From assembly GCA_944371305.1 (NCBI GenBank), contig CALVXM010000004.1, positions 1 to 59,136 of the forward strand: DNA of 59,136 bases, given 5' to 3'. Position 1 is the stretch's first letter. Each line of letters starts with the position of its first letter. Of this stretch, positions 33,743 to 50,471 are shown piece by piece. The notes beneath the pieces were generated by a model. The model had not been told where the DNA came from, did not search any database, and worked only from the letters and a program-made list of their open reading frames with translations. A program made the position numbers and the translations under genes. Source of the stretch: an uncultured Bacilli bacterium. GTDB taxonomy: Bacteria > Bacillota_I > Bacilli_A > RF39 > UBA660.

Positions 33743-33798
33743 ACTATCAACAATTTTATTTGTCAACAGTCTGAAAGCATCAATTTAAATTGATGCTT
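33743..33798 (-). terminator. Two tandem hairpins closing the toxin island
   Basis: AAGCATCAA-TTTAAA-TTGATGCTT and AGACTGTTGACAA...TTGTTGATAGTCT followed by a T run. Confidence 0.65.
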
Positions 33799-34579
33799 AT
33801 TTAATTTTACTATTTAATCTTTGCTGTTTTTTTTCTAAGCTAGTCACTGATGATTTACATATATTTCTTACTATTGTGTCTTTATCATTAACATATTTTT
33901 GAAATATTGGTAATAATTCTATCTTTTTATATTTCTTTAAACTTTTAAGAGCAAATATTATCGTTTCCCTTTCTTTTGTTAATTCAATTAATTTAGAAAT
34001 TGCTTCTTCTATTTTTAACTCACCACATACAAACATTATCCCCCATCTTTCTGACCCTAATTCATCATTATTTAACATTTCTAAATATAAATCTTTATAT
34101 TTTATATTCTTTGTTCGAAGAAAAAAATTTGAATACATATCGCATAATATTCCTTTGTTAAGTTTATCAACATTTGCATATCTTACTAATTCCTTTGCAA
34201 AAAAGGGAATCAAATCATGATTTTCAGGTGAAAACAAGCATCCTACATAACATGCTTTATCATTTAATAATGTACTTTTATTATAAAATTCCAAAACTAT
34301 ATCTCTTGTTTCTTTTGGATGCTCTTGACAATAATATTTCAATTCATCCCATATTTTAAATTTTATTTTTTCTTTTCTCATCCTATTATCAAATTCTAAT
34401 AATGTACTACCTTCATCTGGTTTCCACTTTTTTTCTTCTTTTAGATCATCTTTATACAAAGCTGCTGCTATAGCATTTTCTACTGAACCGTATATTAATT
34501 TATATATTTCTTGCTTTACATCTGAAATTTTTGATTTTATTATCAACTTAATATTTTTTTTCTTTTTCTTCTTCTTCAT
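33797..34579 (-). CDS. HEAT-repeat-like protein, candidate immunity protein
   Basis: C-terminal helical repeats (GELKIEEAISKLIEL, ALKSL, DKDTIVR) at the end of the Rhs cassette array. Confidence 0.55.
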   Translation of the reverse strand: MKKKKKKKNIKLIIKSKISDVKQEIYKLIYGSVENAIAAALYKDDLKEEKKWKPDEGSTLLEFDNRMRKEKIKFKIWDELKYYCQEHPKETRDIVLEFYNKSTLLNDKACYVGCLFSPENHDLIPFFAKELVRYANVDKLNKGILCDMYSNFFLRTKNIKYKDLYLEMLNNDELGSERWGIMFVCGELKIEEAISKLIELTKERETIIFALKSLKKYKKIELLPIFQKYVNDKDTIVRNICKSSVTSLEKKQQRLNSKIK

Positions 34580-47500: not shown

Positions 47501-50471
47501 TTAAATCAGCATAGAAAAAGGTATCCCCTGCATCCATTTCATTTTTAGGAAAAAATCCTAATTGAATTGTATTATTTTTATAATCATCATACTCTTTAAT
47601 TAATCCTAAATTCTTGTACCAAAATGATAAGTAATATATATCTCCTTTAGCCCCATCTATAGCAATCGAACGTGAAAGAAATTTTGTCATTTTAGGATGA
47701 CACGCCATTTTAAACATGTTATTACCATTAGAATCAGCTAATATTTCATCTGAATTATCATCAGATATAAATGTTTCACCAAATTCATAAAGTTTACCAT
47801 TATAATTCCAACCTGCTAAATCATATTCAAAATCACTATTATCGATTAAATTATAACTATTAGCTACTTTATTATTTTCTAATTGAATATCATCAATATA
47901 AATTATTTCATCAGTTAAATCATCAACACCAATAAATATTTTAATATTTGAAGTTGGTGTGACATCATTGATAGTAACAGTATATCTTTCAAACTCATTA
48001 TTTGGATTAATTATTATGGTATTCGAAATATTATTTCCATTTTCTAACCAAACTGAATAAGGTTTAAAAGCTTTACTATAAAAACTAAAGGTATAACTAC
48101 CAGCTAAAGTAACTGAATAACTAGCATACGCTTCACCAGAGCCAGATAATTTTAAACTTTTTATTCCTGATAGACTACATTCATCTGTTATGCTTACATC
48201 TAAACTATCATCACTAATAAAGTCATTTTCACTCATCTCAAAACTAGAGTTCCAAATTAAGTTTTTAACATATTTAGTCATTTCATGATTGTTAGTTAAG
48301 CGATTTTGATCATAAATATAGCTTTTACCATAAGCAGAAGCAATATTATCAGTTTCTTTTAAATTGGTTATACTGGTGGTGTTACCAAAATGATTAAAAT
48401 TATAAGTATTGATGCGATCTTTATTATCTTTAATATTAGTAAGTTCAAAACCATAAGAAAAATCATAAGTATTACCTAAAGTATCATTTTTTCCATATTC
48501 ACTAATTTTCTTAACACGATACGGTATAACATCATAATATTCAAATTTTATTTTATTTAAATTAACATCAGTTATACTACTAATAATACTATCGTTATAA
48601 TTAATAGTAGTTGTTCCTAAATTATCGACAATAGAAACTATTTTTCCATCAGCAATATTTAAAGTAGTTGTTTTTAAAGGACTAGTAATTACAATATTAT
48701 CGTTATAAGCGATATTAATTTCATTATTATTTCCATCTTTAATTTTTACTATTTGATTATTTTCATATATAATATTAACTTCACTATTTTTAACATCAAC
48801 TATTTTACTTAAATAATAAATATCGTTAATCTTAGTAAAAATTAATTTATTATTGTTTTTATCTTTTATTGTCCAATCATTATCATTTAATATTAATTCT
48901 AAGTCTAAACTATCTTCATCTTTATATTTACCAAGACCATTACCATCAGCATCTTTTTCCTCATAAAAATAATGAATCGTGCCATCTTCATCTAAATATT
49001 GATACATAACTTCTTCATCAATTGTTACTTTTTTTAGTGTCTGATATAAACTAAACTTAAATCCTTTGATTAAGCCATAATTATTTTCTAAAACAACATC
49101 ATTGGTATTATAAAAAAGATTTAAATCGACTGGCAACTTACCACCGATTGTACTACCCAATAGAAAGTCAACTGTAATATTTCCATTATAATTATTAGCA
49201 GAAATAGAACTATTAGATAATTCAAAAGTTTGATAAGTCATATAAGGTTCTAAACCATTTTGATTACGATAAGTTATAGCTAATAATGGTCCTCCTACAC
49301 CATTATCATGAGCAACATATTCTGGTTTTACTTCATTTTGATAGTATACTTCTTCATGTGTTTTTATTAAAACTCCATAATTAGGTGTTCCTGAATACCA
49401 TCTTTTAACTAAATTAGTAATATTAAAACTACGATAATTTTCACCATAACCAACCGTAACTATATCTTCATCATTTCCAAGATAATCCTCTATTCGTGAA
49501 TCATATTTATCGTTCATATTATCCCATGTTGCCGTAGTTTCAGTCCAATTAGAAGTTAGGCGATGAATTGTCGCCATTCTGATTTTTCTAAGAGTTGGGG
49601 CATAAATATTAGGGTCATATAAATATAATCTAGCATCGATAATACTATCGCCAGTTCCGATTTTAGGTAAAGCAAATTTAATTAGGGTTCTATAAATACC
49701 ACCATAAGAGGTAACATTAGCTTTAAGCAAATAATCAAGTCCATAATTATAATTTGCCATTCGATTATATATATACGTATCCTCTATTCCTTTTAATTCG
49801 TCAGTTGTAATAGTAGGGTCAATATAAACAGGATATTTAATATCACTTAATAACCAATCCTTATCTAATTTTAAAACCAATTCATAACCTTCTTCTTTTT
49901 TATTTAATTCATAATAAAGATTATGATTAATTTTATTATCACTATCTTTCATATAAGGTTTTTCAATTATAAATTCGCCACATCTAACTTTTCCATCAAC
50001 TAATTCTAACTCTAAATCTGTATCTATATTAAATATAAACTCATCTTTGATACTTGCTTTATCTTTTATTACAATACTCTCTTTTATTTTACTTGGTAAA
50101 ATATCATAAATAACATCGATATTATCAAAAATATTATTATATCTTATCTCACCTCTTTTTCTTATTTTTTGATCTTTTTTTAAAGGTTTATTATTAACTT
50201 TATTACAATTATTTATCCTAAATTTTAAGTAATGTTTACTTTTTTTAACTTCTAATAATTCTTCATTACTATCTTTAGCAAACGATACTTTTAAATCATT
50301 ATCTTTATTAATATATCGATTATTTTCCAGTTTTAAAGTATTATTAATTTCGATATATTTATTATCTTTTAAATAATGAACATTATCTGGATAAATTCTA
50401 GCTTCAATTGTTCCATCTTCCTTTAAAAAATGTTTTTCATTTAATTTCCTTAAATGCTTTAATTCTAGCAT
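44511..50471 (-). CDS. Rhs/YD-repeat polymorphic toxin with DNRLRE domain and GIY-YIG nuclease tip
   Basis: DTYI..YNYG..RTLIKF (DNRLRE-like), YD repeats, core PFRYRSYYYD.ETGLYYLNSRYY..WGRFINAD, DYSG cleavage site, tip VYVL..YVGRT..R..E..N; RBS AAGGAGG. Confidence 0.95.
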   Translation of the reverse strand: MLELKHLRKLNEKHFLKEDGTIEARIYPDNVHYLKDNKYIEINNTLKLENNRYINKDNDLKVSFAKDSNEELLEVKKSKHYLKFRINNCNKVNNKPLKKDQKIRKRGEIRYNNIFDNIDVIYDILPSKIKESIVIKDKASIKDEFIFNIDTDLELELVDGKVRCGEFIIEKPYMKDSDNKINHNLYYELNKKEEGYELVLKLDKDWLLSDIKYPVYIDPTITTDELKGIEDTYIYNRMANYNYGLDYLLKANVTSYGGIYRTLIKFALPKIGTGDSIIDARLYLYDPNIYAPTLRKIRMATIHRLTSNWTETTATWDNMNDKYDSRIEDYLGNDEDIVTVGYGENYRSFNITNLVKRWYSGTPNYGVLIKTHEEVYYQNEVKPEYVAHDNGVGGPLLAITYRNQNGLEPYMTYQTFELSNSSISANNYNGNITVDFLLGSTIGGKLPVDLNLFYNTNDVVLENNYGLIKGFKFSLYQTLKKVTIDEEVMYQYLDEDGTIHYFYEEKDADGNGLGKYKDEDSLDLELILNDNDWTIKDKNNNKLIFTKINDIYYLSKIVDVKNSEVNIIYENNQIVKIKDGNNNEINIAYNDNIVITSPLKTTTLNIADGKIVSIVDNLGTTTINYNDSIISSITDVNLNKIKFEYYDVIPYRVKKISEYGKNDTLGNTYDFSYGFELTNIKDNKDRINTYNFNHFGNTTSITNLKETDNIASAYGKSYIYDQNRLTNNHEMTKYVKNLIWNSSFEMSENDFISDDSLDVSITDECSLSGIKSLKLSGSGEAYASYSVTLAGSYTFSFYSKAFKPYSVWLENGNNISNTIIINPNNEFERYTVTINDVTPTSNIKIFIGVDDLTDEIIYIDDIQLENNKVANSYNLIDNSDFEYDLAGWNYNGKLYEFGETFISDDNSDEILADSNGNNMFKMACHPKMTKFLSRSIAIDGAKGDIYYLSFWYKNLGLIKEYDDYKNNTIQLGFFPKNEMDAGDTFFYADLNPCSSEWQFYSTVLSAPYDYYSLRIAVTSILSANEFYVTNFTLIKDVGDISYQYDSDGNMIGFKDKNKTISDFNYDQNNQLIKMTDPLGNELHYEYDKEITDRILRGISTSGIANEIVYDDIGNPILTKIQADAKELSNGLYYIKLKGSNQYLKVNPLIKNIMLSEDNCSHDVFNITITDQNLNIKPIFHNNIYISNSLFDNISFEFIKQLDNSYMLKLNDKYVTSTVDGLCLSEEEDKINQCFYFENQDSKLYIENSAEYSLDGRFLTKTIDTLFNETSYVTNEKGLITRMTDALGNITNYTYNTKDQLIKIVKGDMEVSYEYNGTLLSKIIQDNKEYIFNYDEFLNTKSIYINNNKLIENNYEENNGNLIGSVYGNNDNISYQYDEFDRLCKLIKMNNTYNYYYDNFGNIKKIASLDNTYNYEYDFAQRLIGYKENNFELKYDYNELDNLVLEKQILNNITNTYSYEHNNEDNITKIVNDDMIINYTYDELQRLKERNINGYITKYNYVTNGNRTSSLIESILENDDIYKYKYDKLGNIIKIIKNNELIHSYEYDQYNQLIKEENGLETITYEYDNFGNILNKKTYNEEQLITTDAYVYANLNWKDQLTKYNDIIITYDEIGNPLTIGDISLSWINGRQLNSYTTSNLNINYKYNKDGIRTEKNVNGNITKYYVEGNKIIYLQKGNEIIYFLYENDASIGFKYAGNTYYYIKNLQSDVLGILNSEFEQIVEYEYDSYGKIKSIKDGLGNIITDTNHIAYINPFRYRSYYYDDETGLYYLNSRYYNPTWGRFINADGIIGANIDIISQNLYAYCSNNNVTFIDYSGSSAAIAIGGTAFLTEIAIAIGKTLLSAAAILGGAALTEDIVTNSTYKNSSNSKKSKKSSDTAKEHNVYVLKDDDNEVQYVGRTKNLKATKYRHENNPNRKKLTLYPVYVDLTYNEARILEQKLIEEYKTLKKDIPMNNQINGMSKKHYLYRFVPMPIGTWDESLTYVGN

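Follow-up and report, generated by a model that had tools for sequence, protein, structure and literature searches.

A probable trail of displaced C-terminal cassettes and retained immunity-type genes behind an Rhs toxin gene of an uncultured Bacilli bacterium

The 59,136-nucleotide contig CALVXM010000004.1 of an uncultured Bacilli bacterium, hereafter the window, carries a gene for an Rhs toxin that is followed on the minus strand by start-less copies of part of its core and by a series of immunity-type genes. We consider it likely that this island holds a trail left by serial displacement of the C-terminal end of the Rhs protein, together with a repertoire of immunity genes. The active weapon would be a leaderless Rhs protein of 1986 amino acids (aa), with a YD shell, a core that by analogy with TcC and Rhs proteins would act as an autoprotease, a C-terminal tip of the GIY-YIG (URI-type) class, and the product of the adjacent gene imm284a as its immunity protein. 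Each new cassette of tip and immunity gene would have recombined in at the core and moved the older core end further downstream along with its tip and immunity gene, and later deletions would have worn away the toxin parts while sparing the immunity genes. This would have left one intact orphan (core, tip 1 and the gene RDDa), one truncated orphan (core, short tip 2 and RDDb), an internal Rhs fragment, a core stub of 56 bp and about eight immunity-type genes without a tip. The retained immunity genes probably protect against toxins of neighbouring strains.

Core repeats and orphan modules

A preliminary description of this DNA had proposed one full Rhs toxin followed by start-less core copies and immunity-like genes, and this arrangement was found. 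The 1986-aa open reading frame (ORF) is followed by two copies of a 156-bp segment of its core, here called orphans 1 and 2, which are 92-95.5% identical to the main copy. Over these 156 bp, the main copy shares 95.5% identity with orphan 1 and 91.7% with orphan 2, with longest exact runs of 47 and 50 bp, respectively, and the two orphans share 94.9% with each other, with an exact run of 77 bp. This likeness is far beyond chance. All core copies diverge at one point, right after GCTGATGGTAT (...GRFINADG), and in both orphans the reading frame is open from stop to stop, with no start codon ahead of the core. The third core remnant of the preliminary description, put there at 45 bp, is present as well and measures 56 bp, and three further remnants had been missed: an internal Rhs fragment, a fragment of the gene p230 and an RDD scar (Table 1). 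With start-less cores that carry different tips and are each followed by their own immunity gene, the series reads as an Rhs orphan module array.

Tip 1 is a real Rhs tip, because it forms the C-terminus of an intact 1986-aa Rhs protein, P0005, in the locus L019, where it is 49% identical to the C-terminal 167 aa (aa 1818-1984). The genes in this locus are ordered as fibre-tip gene, small protein, rhs with the tip 1-like end, and RDD gene, and orphan 1 together with RDDa is collinear over 1.1 kb with the 3' end of the L019 rhs and its RDD gene. Orphan 1 is best described as a displaced Rhs module. Relatives of tip 1 are few, with seven among 1.84 billion representatives, one of which is P0005. 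A profile search of the PDB returned noise only (E of at least 0.07) and the Pfam and NCBIfam searches gave no match. An AlphaFold2 (AF2) model of tip 1, built from a four-sequence alignment and containing two helices and about eight strands, was set aside as unfit for a fold search in view of its pLDDT of 45.7.

Orphan 2 is probably truncated. Its motif is degenerate, reading SFDISS instead of DPxG, and 57 residues follow it, for which no convincing homologue was found in 401 same-family genomes; the matches were weak (best E=1e-5) and fell mostly over a generic pre-toxin linker. In L035, an RDDb-like gene follows a second beta-rich tip fragment, which suggests that orphan 2 has lost most of such a tip. 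Of the orphans in the window, only orphan 1 has a full-length tip.

Tip exchange at the core and its alternatives

A search with the p258 gene retrieved a closely related genome, NCBI GCA_963600635.1 (L032). The array is 99.5% identical to that of L032 over 9.2 kb (positions 39723-30510), and it is flanked by the same lemA, p221 and DUF2779 genes. In L032, the main rhs gene has a Gly-zipper tip and the next gene is of the p248 type (251 aa); in the window, the GIY-YIG tip and imm284a take these places. The two sequences part exactly after GCTGATGGTAT, where the core ends, and become alike again from the promoter-like element of orphan 1 onwards, the orphan 1 unit being next in line in both. 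The cassette between two core copies has been replaced, and since the switch falls exactly at the core boundary, this is where tips are exchanged. Strain comparison, which the preliminary description had named as a check, thus gave a locus that is not invariant: main tip and immunity gene differ while the array is nearly unchanged. The imported tip differs from all downstream orphans, and the swap shows core exchange, not reloading from the array. The earlier proposal that recombination between cores swaps the main tip for a downstream one was borne out as far as the site of exchange is concerned, but not as to the source of the incoming tip.

The shared array of each strain holds a paralogue of its own main-tip immunity gene and one of that of the other strain (p248 and imm284b), and imm284b is shortened to 209 aa in L032. 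Orphan 1 has a 226-bp deletion in L018 and L032, and in L032 also a TGA in the core. RDDa stays 98% identical in both, where tip 1 is deleted. These facts fit serial C-terminal displacement, after which toxins eroded and immunity genes were retained; they are no demonstration of reloading.

The element at which the strains rejoin bears on a different explanation. A promoter-like 45-bp sequence is common to orphan 1, orphan 2 and the internal fragment, and the same TAGACA-N17-TGnTAAAAT element, with an extended -10, precedes all three. It is conceivable, if doubtful, that this is a real promoter that transcribes each orphan with its immunity gene and keeps immunity expressed, perhaps with tip-only proteins made from internal TTG starts (42840-43436 and 36596-36835). 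The element is kept ahead of orphan 1 in L032 despite a different upstream gene, and terminator-like hairpins on the minus strand were found only at 50943-50968, after the fibre-tip gene, and at the end of the array (33741-33772). However, matches to such a promoter are barely enriched in this 20% GC DNA (230 found against 192 expected), which makes a consensus match weak evidence, and the three copies may simply descend from one duplicated unit. We regard the 45-bp element as a lead rather than a result.

The preliminary description had called the locus a reloadable cassette array. As a working magazine, it would keep the orphan modules as ammunition, and intragenomic RecA recombination, probably after local duplication as in Salmonella, would regularly fuse rhs to orphan 1 or 2 and so give subpopulations with another toxin. 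We find this unlikely, even though the core repeats are direct, co-oriented and in frame, with exact runs of 47-50 bp between main copy and orphans, and both the tip and the immunity gene of orphan 1 are whole. Recombination with an orphan has been demonstrated experimentally in Salmonella, with 522 bp of homology at 95% (PMC3967940). Reloading of orphan 1 would be mechanically possible, yet the available homology is 156 bp, two other samples carry orphan 1 in an inactivated form, orphan 2 with its degenerate DPxG-type motif looks truncated, and in the only swap seen between strains the incoming tip was one that the array lacks. Because, in addition, immunity genes without a tip dominate, the array reads better as a displacement trail with an immunity repertoire than as a loaded magazine. 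Of the original proposal, the orphan modules of core and tip are supported, and the reloadable magazine only in part.

Several points weigh against the reading as a displacement trail with an active toxin. Half of the twelve genes counted as immunity genes (p258, p247, p230, p162, p179 and p260) are so placed by position alone, and we infer the toxicity of the tips and the protection by the downstream genes from position and synteny only. The Pfam GIY-YIG score of the main tip stays under the gathering cut-off, and neither Tox-URI family matched. The assembly is of the metagenome type, with 47 contigs, and 156-bp repeats could in principle be mis-joined, although the same array order was assembled independently in L032. 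Finally, Rhs lacks a signal peptide as well as any LXG or PAAR domain, and neither EssC nor WXG100 was found in this 92%-complete genome, so that the protein may not be deliverable in this strain.

Table 1. Features of the Rhs island and their positions in the window
Feature	Position	Strand	Remarks
Fibre-tip protein, stand-alone phage tail-fibre-tip type, Gp10_C, 212 aa	50978-51616	-	First gene of the island; PF21939 E=1.2e-23; PHROG tail families, best E=3e-27
Coiled-coil protein, 113 aa, between fibre-tip gene and rhs	50539-50880	-	No family match above threshold
Rhs toxin, 1986 aa	44511-50471	-	YD/RHS repeats, DNRLRE, YD_repeat_2x, Rhs_assc_core, CBM96
DNRLRE/CBM96 domain, Rhs aa 230-378	49338-49784	-	NF033679 E=1.4e-23; PF24517 E=2.6e-14
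Main copy of the 156-bp core repeat	45103-45258	-	Encodes ...TDTNHIAYINPFRYRSYYYDDETGLYYLNSRYYNPTWGRFINADG; inside Rhs_assc_core, aa 1726-1817
Main C-terminal tip, aa 1789-1986	44514-45107	-	GIY-YIG-like domain at ~44592-44828
imm284a, candidate cognate immunity gene of the GIY-YIG tip	43670-44524	-	14-nucleotide overlap with rhs stop
Promoter-like element TAGACA-N17-TGnTAAAAT, directly ahead of orphan 1 core	43599-43627	-	Sequence
Orphan 1, 253 aa stop to stop	42840-43601	-	Core 43435-43590 and 170-aa tip 1 (42843-43352); TIGR03696 E=5.9e-17
RDDa, 116 aa, RDD-like with three transmembrane segments, candidate immunity to tip 1	42473-42823	-	Synteny
RDD scar, copy of the region ahead of RDDb and of its first 8 codons, joined to unrelated sequence	42243-42304	-	85% identical to 36470-36531
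p258 (41377-42153) and p247 (40686-41357), tandem paralogues, 47% identical	40686-42153	-	Immunity-like by position only
p230, signal-peptide-like N-terminus, C-terminal transmembrane segment	39921-40613	-	Absent from L032; 5' fragment copied at 34639-34803
Core remnant, 56 bp, 93-96% identity, 15 codons exact	39726-39781	-	At the edge of the 99.5% identical L032 block (starts at 39723)
p162, tip-less, immunity-type	39176-39664	-	Position only
p119/DUF5412, tip-less, immunity-type	38770-39129	-	DUF5412 E=1.3e-26
p248, tip-less, immunity-type	37984-38730	-	Synteny with Gly-zipper tips elsewhere
imm284b, orphan paralogue of imm284a, 62% aa identity	37087-37941	-	Weak DUF4259 match
Promoter-like element, copy before orphan 2	37016-37044	-	Sequence
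Orphan 2, 140 aa stop to stop	36596-37018	-	Core 36852-37007 and 57-aa tail; TIGR03696 E=9.8e-16
RDDb, 248-aa RDD-family membrane protein, immunity position after orphan 2	35746-36492	-	Pfam RDD 28.0 bits, cut-off 24.1
Promoter-like element, copy before internal fragment	35594-35622	-	Sequence
Internal Rhs fragment, 78 codons, ~aa 1300-1394 of main Rhs	35346-35582	-	Repeats; third promoter-like element ahead
p179, membrane protein	34804-35343	-	100% conserved in L032; no family match
p230 fragment	34639-34803	-	Repeat; 100% conserved in L032
p260	33797-34579	-	100% conserved in L032; no family match
Terminator-like hairpin, closes the minus-strand unit	33741-33772	-	Distal island boundary; sequence

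Tips and candidate immunity genes

The shell of the Rhs protein is made up of repeats that match RHS_repeat PF05593 (E=3.8e-21) and TIGR01643 (E=4.5e-22), and the Rhs-associated core was located with TIGR03696 (E=3.7e-17). The two Asp residues of the aspartyl autoprotease motif are found in the Rhs core and, by analogy with TcC and Rhs proteins, would be catalytic. The main copy and orphan 1 both contain the segment YYYDDETG...GRFINADG, and orphan 2 ends in ...GRFINADD. Compared with L032, aa 1-200 are 94-100% identical and aa 1051-1750 84-100% in 50-aa windows, and the tip falls below 20%. With a YD shell, a core and a hypervariable tip on a conserved body, the protein has the make-up of an Rhs/YD-repeat polymorphic toxin. 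Core matches were found in 5 of the 25 genomes of the genus, with a different tip in each genome where the tip could be read, including the main tips of G013, G015 and G021. A second polymorphic region, at about aa 200-1050 (47300-49870), is only 24-68% identical to L032. Both the DNRLRE/CBM96 domain and a segment resembling a spike fibre lie in this region, which may serve to bind the target.

The main tip had been described as GIY-YIG, and this assignment was supported by three kinds of comparison. Against Pfam GIY-YIG (PF01541), the tip aligned over nearly the full length of the family with E=1.4e-3 and 19.3 bits, short of the cut-off of 22.6 bits. The tip family is rare, with three other members among 5.8 billion clusters, all of them Rhs proteins of 2035-2175 aa, and the four tips share the invariant pattern Y...YVGRT...E...NQI-G (Y22, Y33, G35, R36, E74 and N92). 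A profile of these four sequences matched the UvrC GIY-YIG domain 1yd6 best in the PDB, with E=0.013. The AF2 model of the tip has a core pLDDT of 77-88 and the topology E-E-H-E-H-H (beta-beta-alpha-beta-alpha-alpha), and its nine best Foldseek matches were all UvrC GIY-YIG domains, with probability 1.00 and TM(target) of 0.54-0.61. On this evidence we accept a GIY-YIG fold for the main tip, and presumably the tip acts as a nuclease. GIY-YIG (URI) toxins on Rhs proteins have been catalogued before (PMC3482391).

The gene imm284a is a candidate for the cognate immunity gene, and an imm284-type gene directly follows the GIY-YIG-tipped rhs in L023 (50% identity), L020 (43%) and L031, where the 35% identity extends over the full length (E=1e-46); L024 gave only a weak match. 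In Pfam searches, imm284 matched no Imm family and resembled only DUF4259, weakly. The DNA of imm284a and its downstream paralogue imm284b forms a mosaic: identity is 95% and 88% over the two 57-bp windows at the start, 56-79% further in and 96% over the final 57 bp.

The count of about a dozen immunity-like genes in the preliminary description proved correct, since the stretch from the rhs stop to the distal hairpin contains twelve intact ORFs of 116-284 aa, but four families only have support beyond position. The six genes placed by position gave nothing in Pfam, NCBIfam or PHROGs. RDDa is 58% identical to the RDD gene directly after the tip 1-like Rhs in L019 and 48% identical to those after tip 1-like modules in L034 and L035. 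Its Pfam RDD (PF06271) score of 16.7 bits is under the cut-off, it is 29% identical to RDDb, and the L019 gene has a weak RDD match. In L032 and G021, the gene directly after the Gly-zipper main tip is a homologue of p248 (55% and 35% identity, respectively), and in L034 a homologue directly follows a Gly-zipper orphan; a Gly-zipper tip is absent from the window. A 41-codon copy of the p248 C-terminus, 90% identical, is present on another contig of the same genome (C8:13642-13764). Three pairs, GIY-YIG/imm284, tip 1/small RDD and Gly-zipper/p248, are thus supported by synteny in independent loci, and the second gene of each pair would be the protective one. The preliminary description had suspected the toxin-immunity pairs here to be uncharacterised, and this holds for the tip 1/RDD pair, because the role of the RDD domain has been called unknown (PMC12419801) and RDD is not mentioned in the available part of Zhang et al. 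(PMC3482391).

As to the remaining genes, DUF5412 is also represented in the L032 and L035 arrays, and the p258/p247 family is present in three to four copies at the same place in L032. Just upstream of p258 and p247, beside the RDD scar, another frame at 42166-42230 reads PHYHPWDGKTNDSHHHIWYYP-stop, which may be the tail of a lost toxin tip.

Island limits, fibre-tip partner and known systems

The window is one whole contig of a 1.14-Mb assembly (26% GC), and a search of the contigs of this genome gave a single rhs locus. All genes of the accessory island are on the minus strand. The island, of about 18 kb (~33.4-51.7 kb), is inserted between radC and lemA; these limits were set because in three same-genus genomes without rhs (G018, G014 and G020) radC is followed within ~100 bp by the p221/lemA block. 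It therefore reaches upstream of rhs to ~51.7 kb, beyond the earlier limit of 50471, and includes the genes for the fibre-tip and coiled-coil proteins. The flanks consist of housekeeping genes, with proS, radC, lemA, a PcsB-type M23 hydrolase and a pair that we take to be rpoB/C, judged by ORF size alone. The DNA had been described as very AT-rich, and the array indeed has a GC content of 18-26%, but this is only a relative feature, and AT-richness was rejected as a mark of foreign DNA, because the genome itself has 26% GC. The order of genes at the island edge (30059-33333) varies: in the window the island is followed by lemA, p221 and DUF2779, and in G018 radC is followed by p221, DUF2779 and lemA. 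This rearrangement, assessed by comparing the window with the same-genus genomes L027, L029 and L030, is small.

In ten loci, which belong to several genera of this bacterial family (the window, G015, G016, G179, G375, L019, L021, L022, L023 and L024), a leaderless rhs has the fibre-tip gene directly upstream; in G021 this gene is just downstream of rhs. The one Rhs homologue with a signal peptide (L031) has no fibre-tip gene. Within the genus, four genomes have both Rhs and fibre tip, one has Rhs only, one fibre tip only and 19 neither (Fisher p=0.002), and Gp10_C is rare in the class, with 9 of 401 genomes. The coiled-coil protein has homologues at the corresponding place in L019 and L024 (60% and 58% identity, respectively), and one is found near rhs in G021. 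The motif TCTAGCGCTTTTCTAGTnAGTAnCTTCATAnAAT is found upstream of both rhs and the fibre-tip gene (50440-50600 and 51590-51720). A same-family genome in which the N-terminal part of Rhs (aa 1-824) had no match carries eight tandem Gp10_C ORFs of 126-155 aa (G389:C36:127-3989), which look like an array of fibre-tip variants.

The N-terminus of the Rhs protein, MLELKHLRKLNEKHFLKEDG..., contains no hydrophobic segment and no signal peptide, and only 12 in-frame codons precede the ATG, while the homologue P0003 carries a signal peptide ahead of the same conserved block. Export by a type VII secretion system (T7SS) was rejected for this genome: the EssC profile TIGR03928 gave only an FtsK-type match, with 98 bits against a cut-off of 778, and WXG100 (PF06013) gave none. 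Among five genus genomes tested, G013 alone has a T7SS. No lysis cassette was found in the island, and tblastn searches with the lysis-type genes of G013 and L021 gave a GH25-like match on contig C31 and a weak match to the G013 holin-like gene on C24, and none to that of L021. In G013 (L016, G013:C58), positions 2378-4431 behind the rhs-immunity pair contain a 165-aa ORF, two small holin-like ORFs and a GH25-type lysin gene, presumably a GH25 lysozyme as read from the sequence alone. In L021, a holin-like gene precedes the fibre-tip gene.

That the island is the leftover of a prophage, with Rhs and fibre tip from a tail module and unrelated ORFs downstream, is very improbable: the phage-type fibre-tip gene, the lack of an export signal in Rhs and the G013 lysin and holin-like genes would agree with it, but the flanks contain no further phage genes for structure, replication or integration, and hypervariable tips on a conserved core, with a tip-specific partner gene after each in many loci, are the signature of polymorphic toxins. 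A prophage origin of the whole island was rejected on account of its housekeeping flanks and the empty site in relatives.

As to the export of the toxin, we tentatively suggest a new Gram-positive delivery class, in which a leaderless Rhs with fibre-tip and coiled-coil partners would be delivered without Sec or T7SS, perhaps released by lysis and aimed at target cells by the fibre tip, in which the toxin tip (at the 156-bp core), the 850-aa CBM-containing mid-region and the immunity trail would be exchanged between near-identical strains, and in which small RDD proteins would confer immunity to a new beta-rich tip, which would probably act on membranes. If true, this would give the RDD domain its first assigned role. 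No description of a leaderless Rhs partnered with a fibre tip was found in the literature searched, and the window provides a further instance of this combination.

Arrays of orphan modules behind rhs are textbook knowledge for Enterobacteria and are known for WapA. The architecture of this locus is therefore not new but that of ordinary orphan modules. What the window adds is a clean natural case of a swap of tip and immunity gene between near-identical strains of uncultured small-genome gut Bacilli, with the breakpoint at a single nucleotide position. It also offers an example of orphan toxin parts that decay while immunity genes are kept, which bears on the question whether orphan arrays are ammunition or shields, and three testable, uncharacterised pairings, in which imm284 partners a rare GIY-YIG tip, an RDD membrane protein partners a beta-rich tip and p248 partners a Gly-zipper tip.

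The preliminary description had called orphan modules established for Rhs and WapA systems, and the known examples agree (PMC3967940, PMC12704120). Like the main and orphan loci of Enterobacteria (Salmonella Typhimurium STM0291/STM0292), the island has a full rhs followed by start-less fragments of core and tip, each with an immunity gene, with core homology of about 95% as recombination substrate and a sharp tip boundary after the core (PMC3967940). It differs from these in its shorter homology (156 bp), in its host, a Gram-positive-type small-genome Bacilli bacterium without type VI secretion system, PAAR or VgrG, and in a trail that is mostly toxin-less. With WapA-type Rhs proteins (B. subtilis WapA/WapI and its yxi orphan array, and S. 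suis WapA), the protein shares the YD shell, DNRLRE and a polymorphic tip, and the locus shares the downstream immunity gene and the truncated duplicates known in S. suis as Rhs orphans (PMC12704120). However, WapA proteins carry a Sec signal peptide together with modules for wall binding, which in S. suis are LysM, and the S. suis system also has a dedicated SecF-like protein and SrtB. Lacking an N-terminal Sec signal peptide, the Rhs of the window falls outside the Sec-exported WapA type, and it has a phage fibre-tip gene upstream instead.

The main tip resembles Tox-URI1 and Tox-URI2, as described in PMC3482391, which also covers cassette arrays, by its GIY-YIG fold at the Rhs C-terminus and the pattern Y...Y-x-G-R...E...N, and differs from them in that it gave no Pfam Tox-URI match, only the sub-threshold generic one. 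Like the polyimmunity loci described by Zhang et al. (2012) and for Bacteroidales (PMC10470768), the array contains same-strand immunity-type genes without cognate toxins, and some of them have paralogues in sister strains that stand beside active toxins as their immunity genes. In contrast to those loci, the genes are here interleaved with remnants of toxin cassettes and attached to an active toxin gene, an arrangement that Zhang et al. set apart from true polyimmunity loci.

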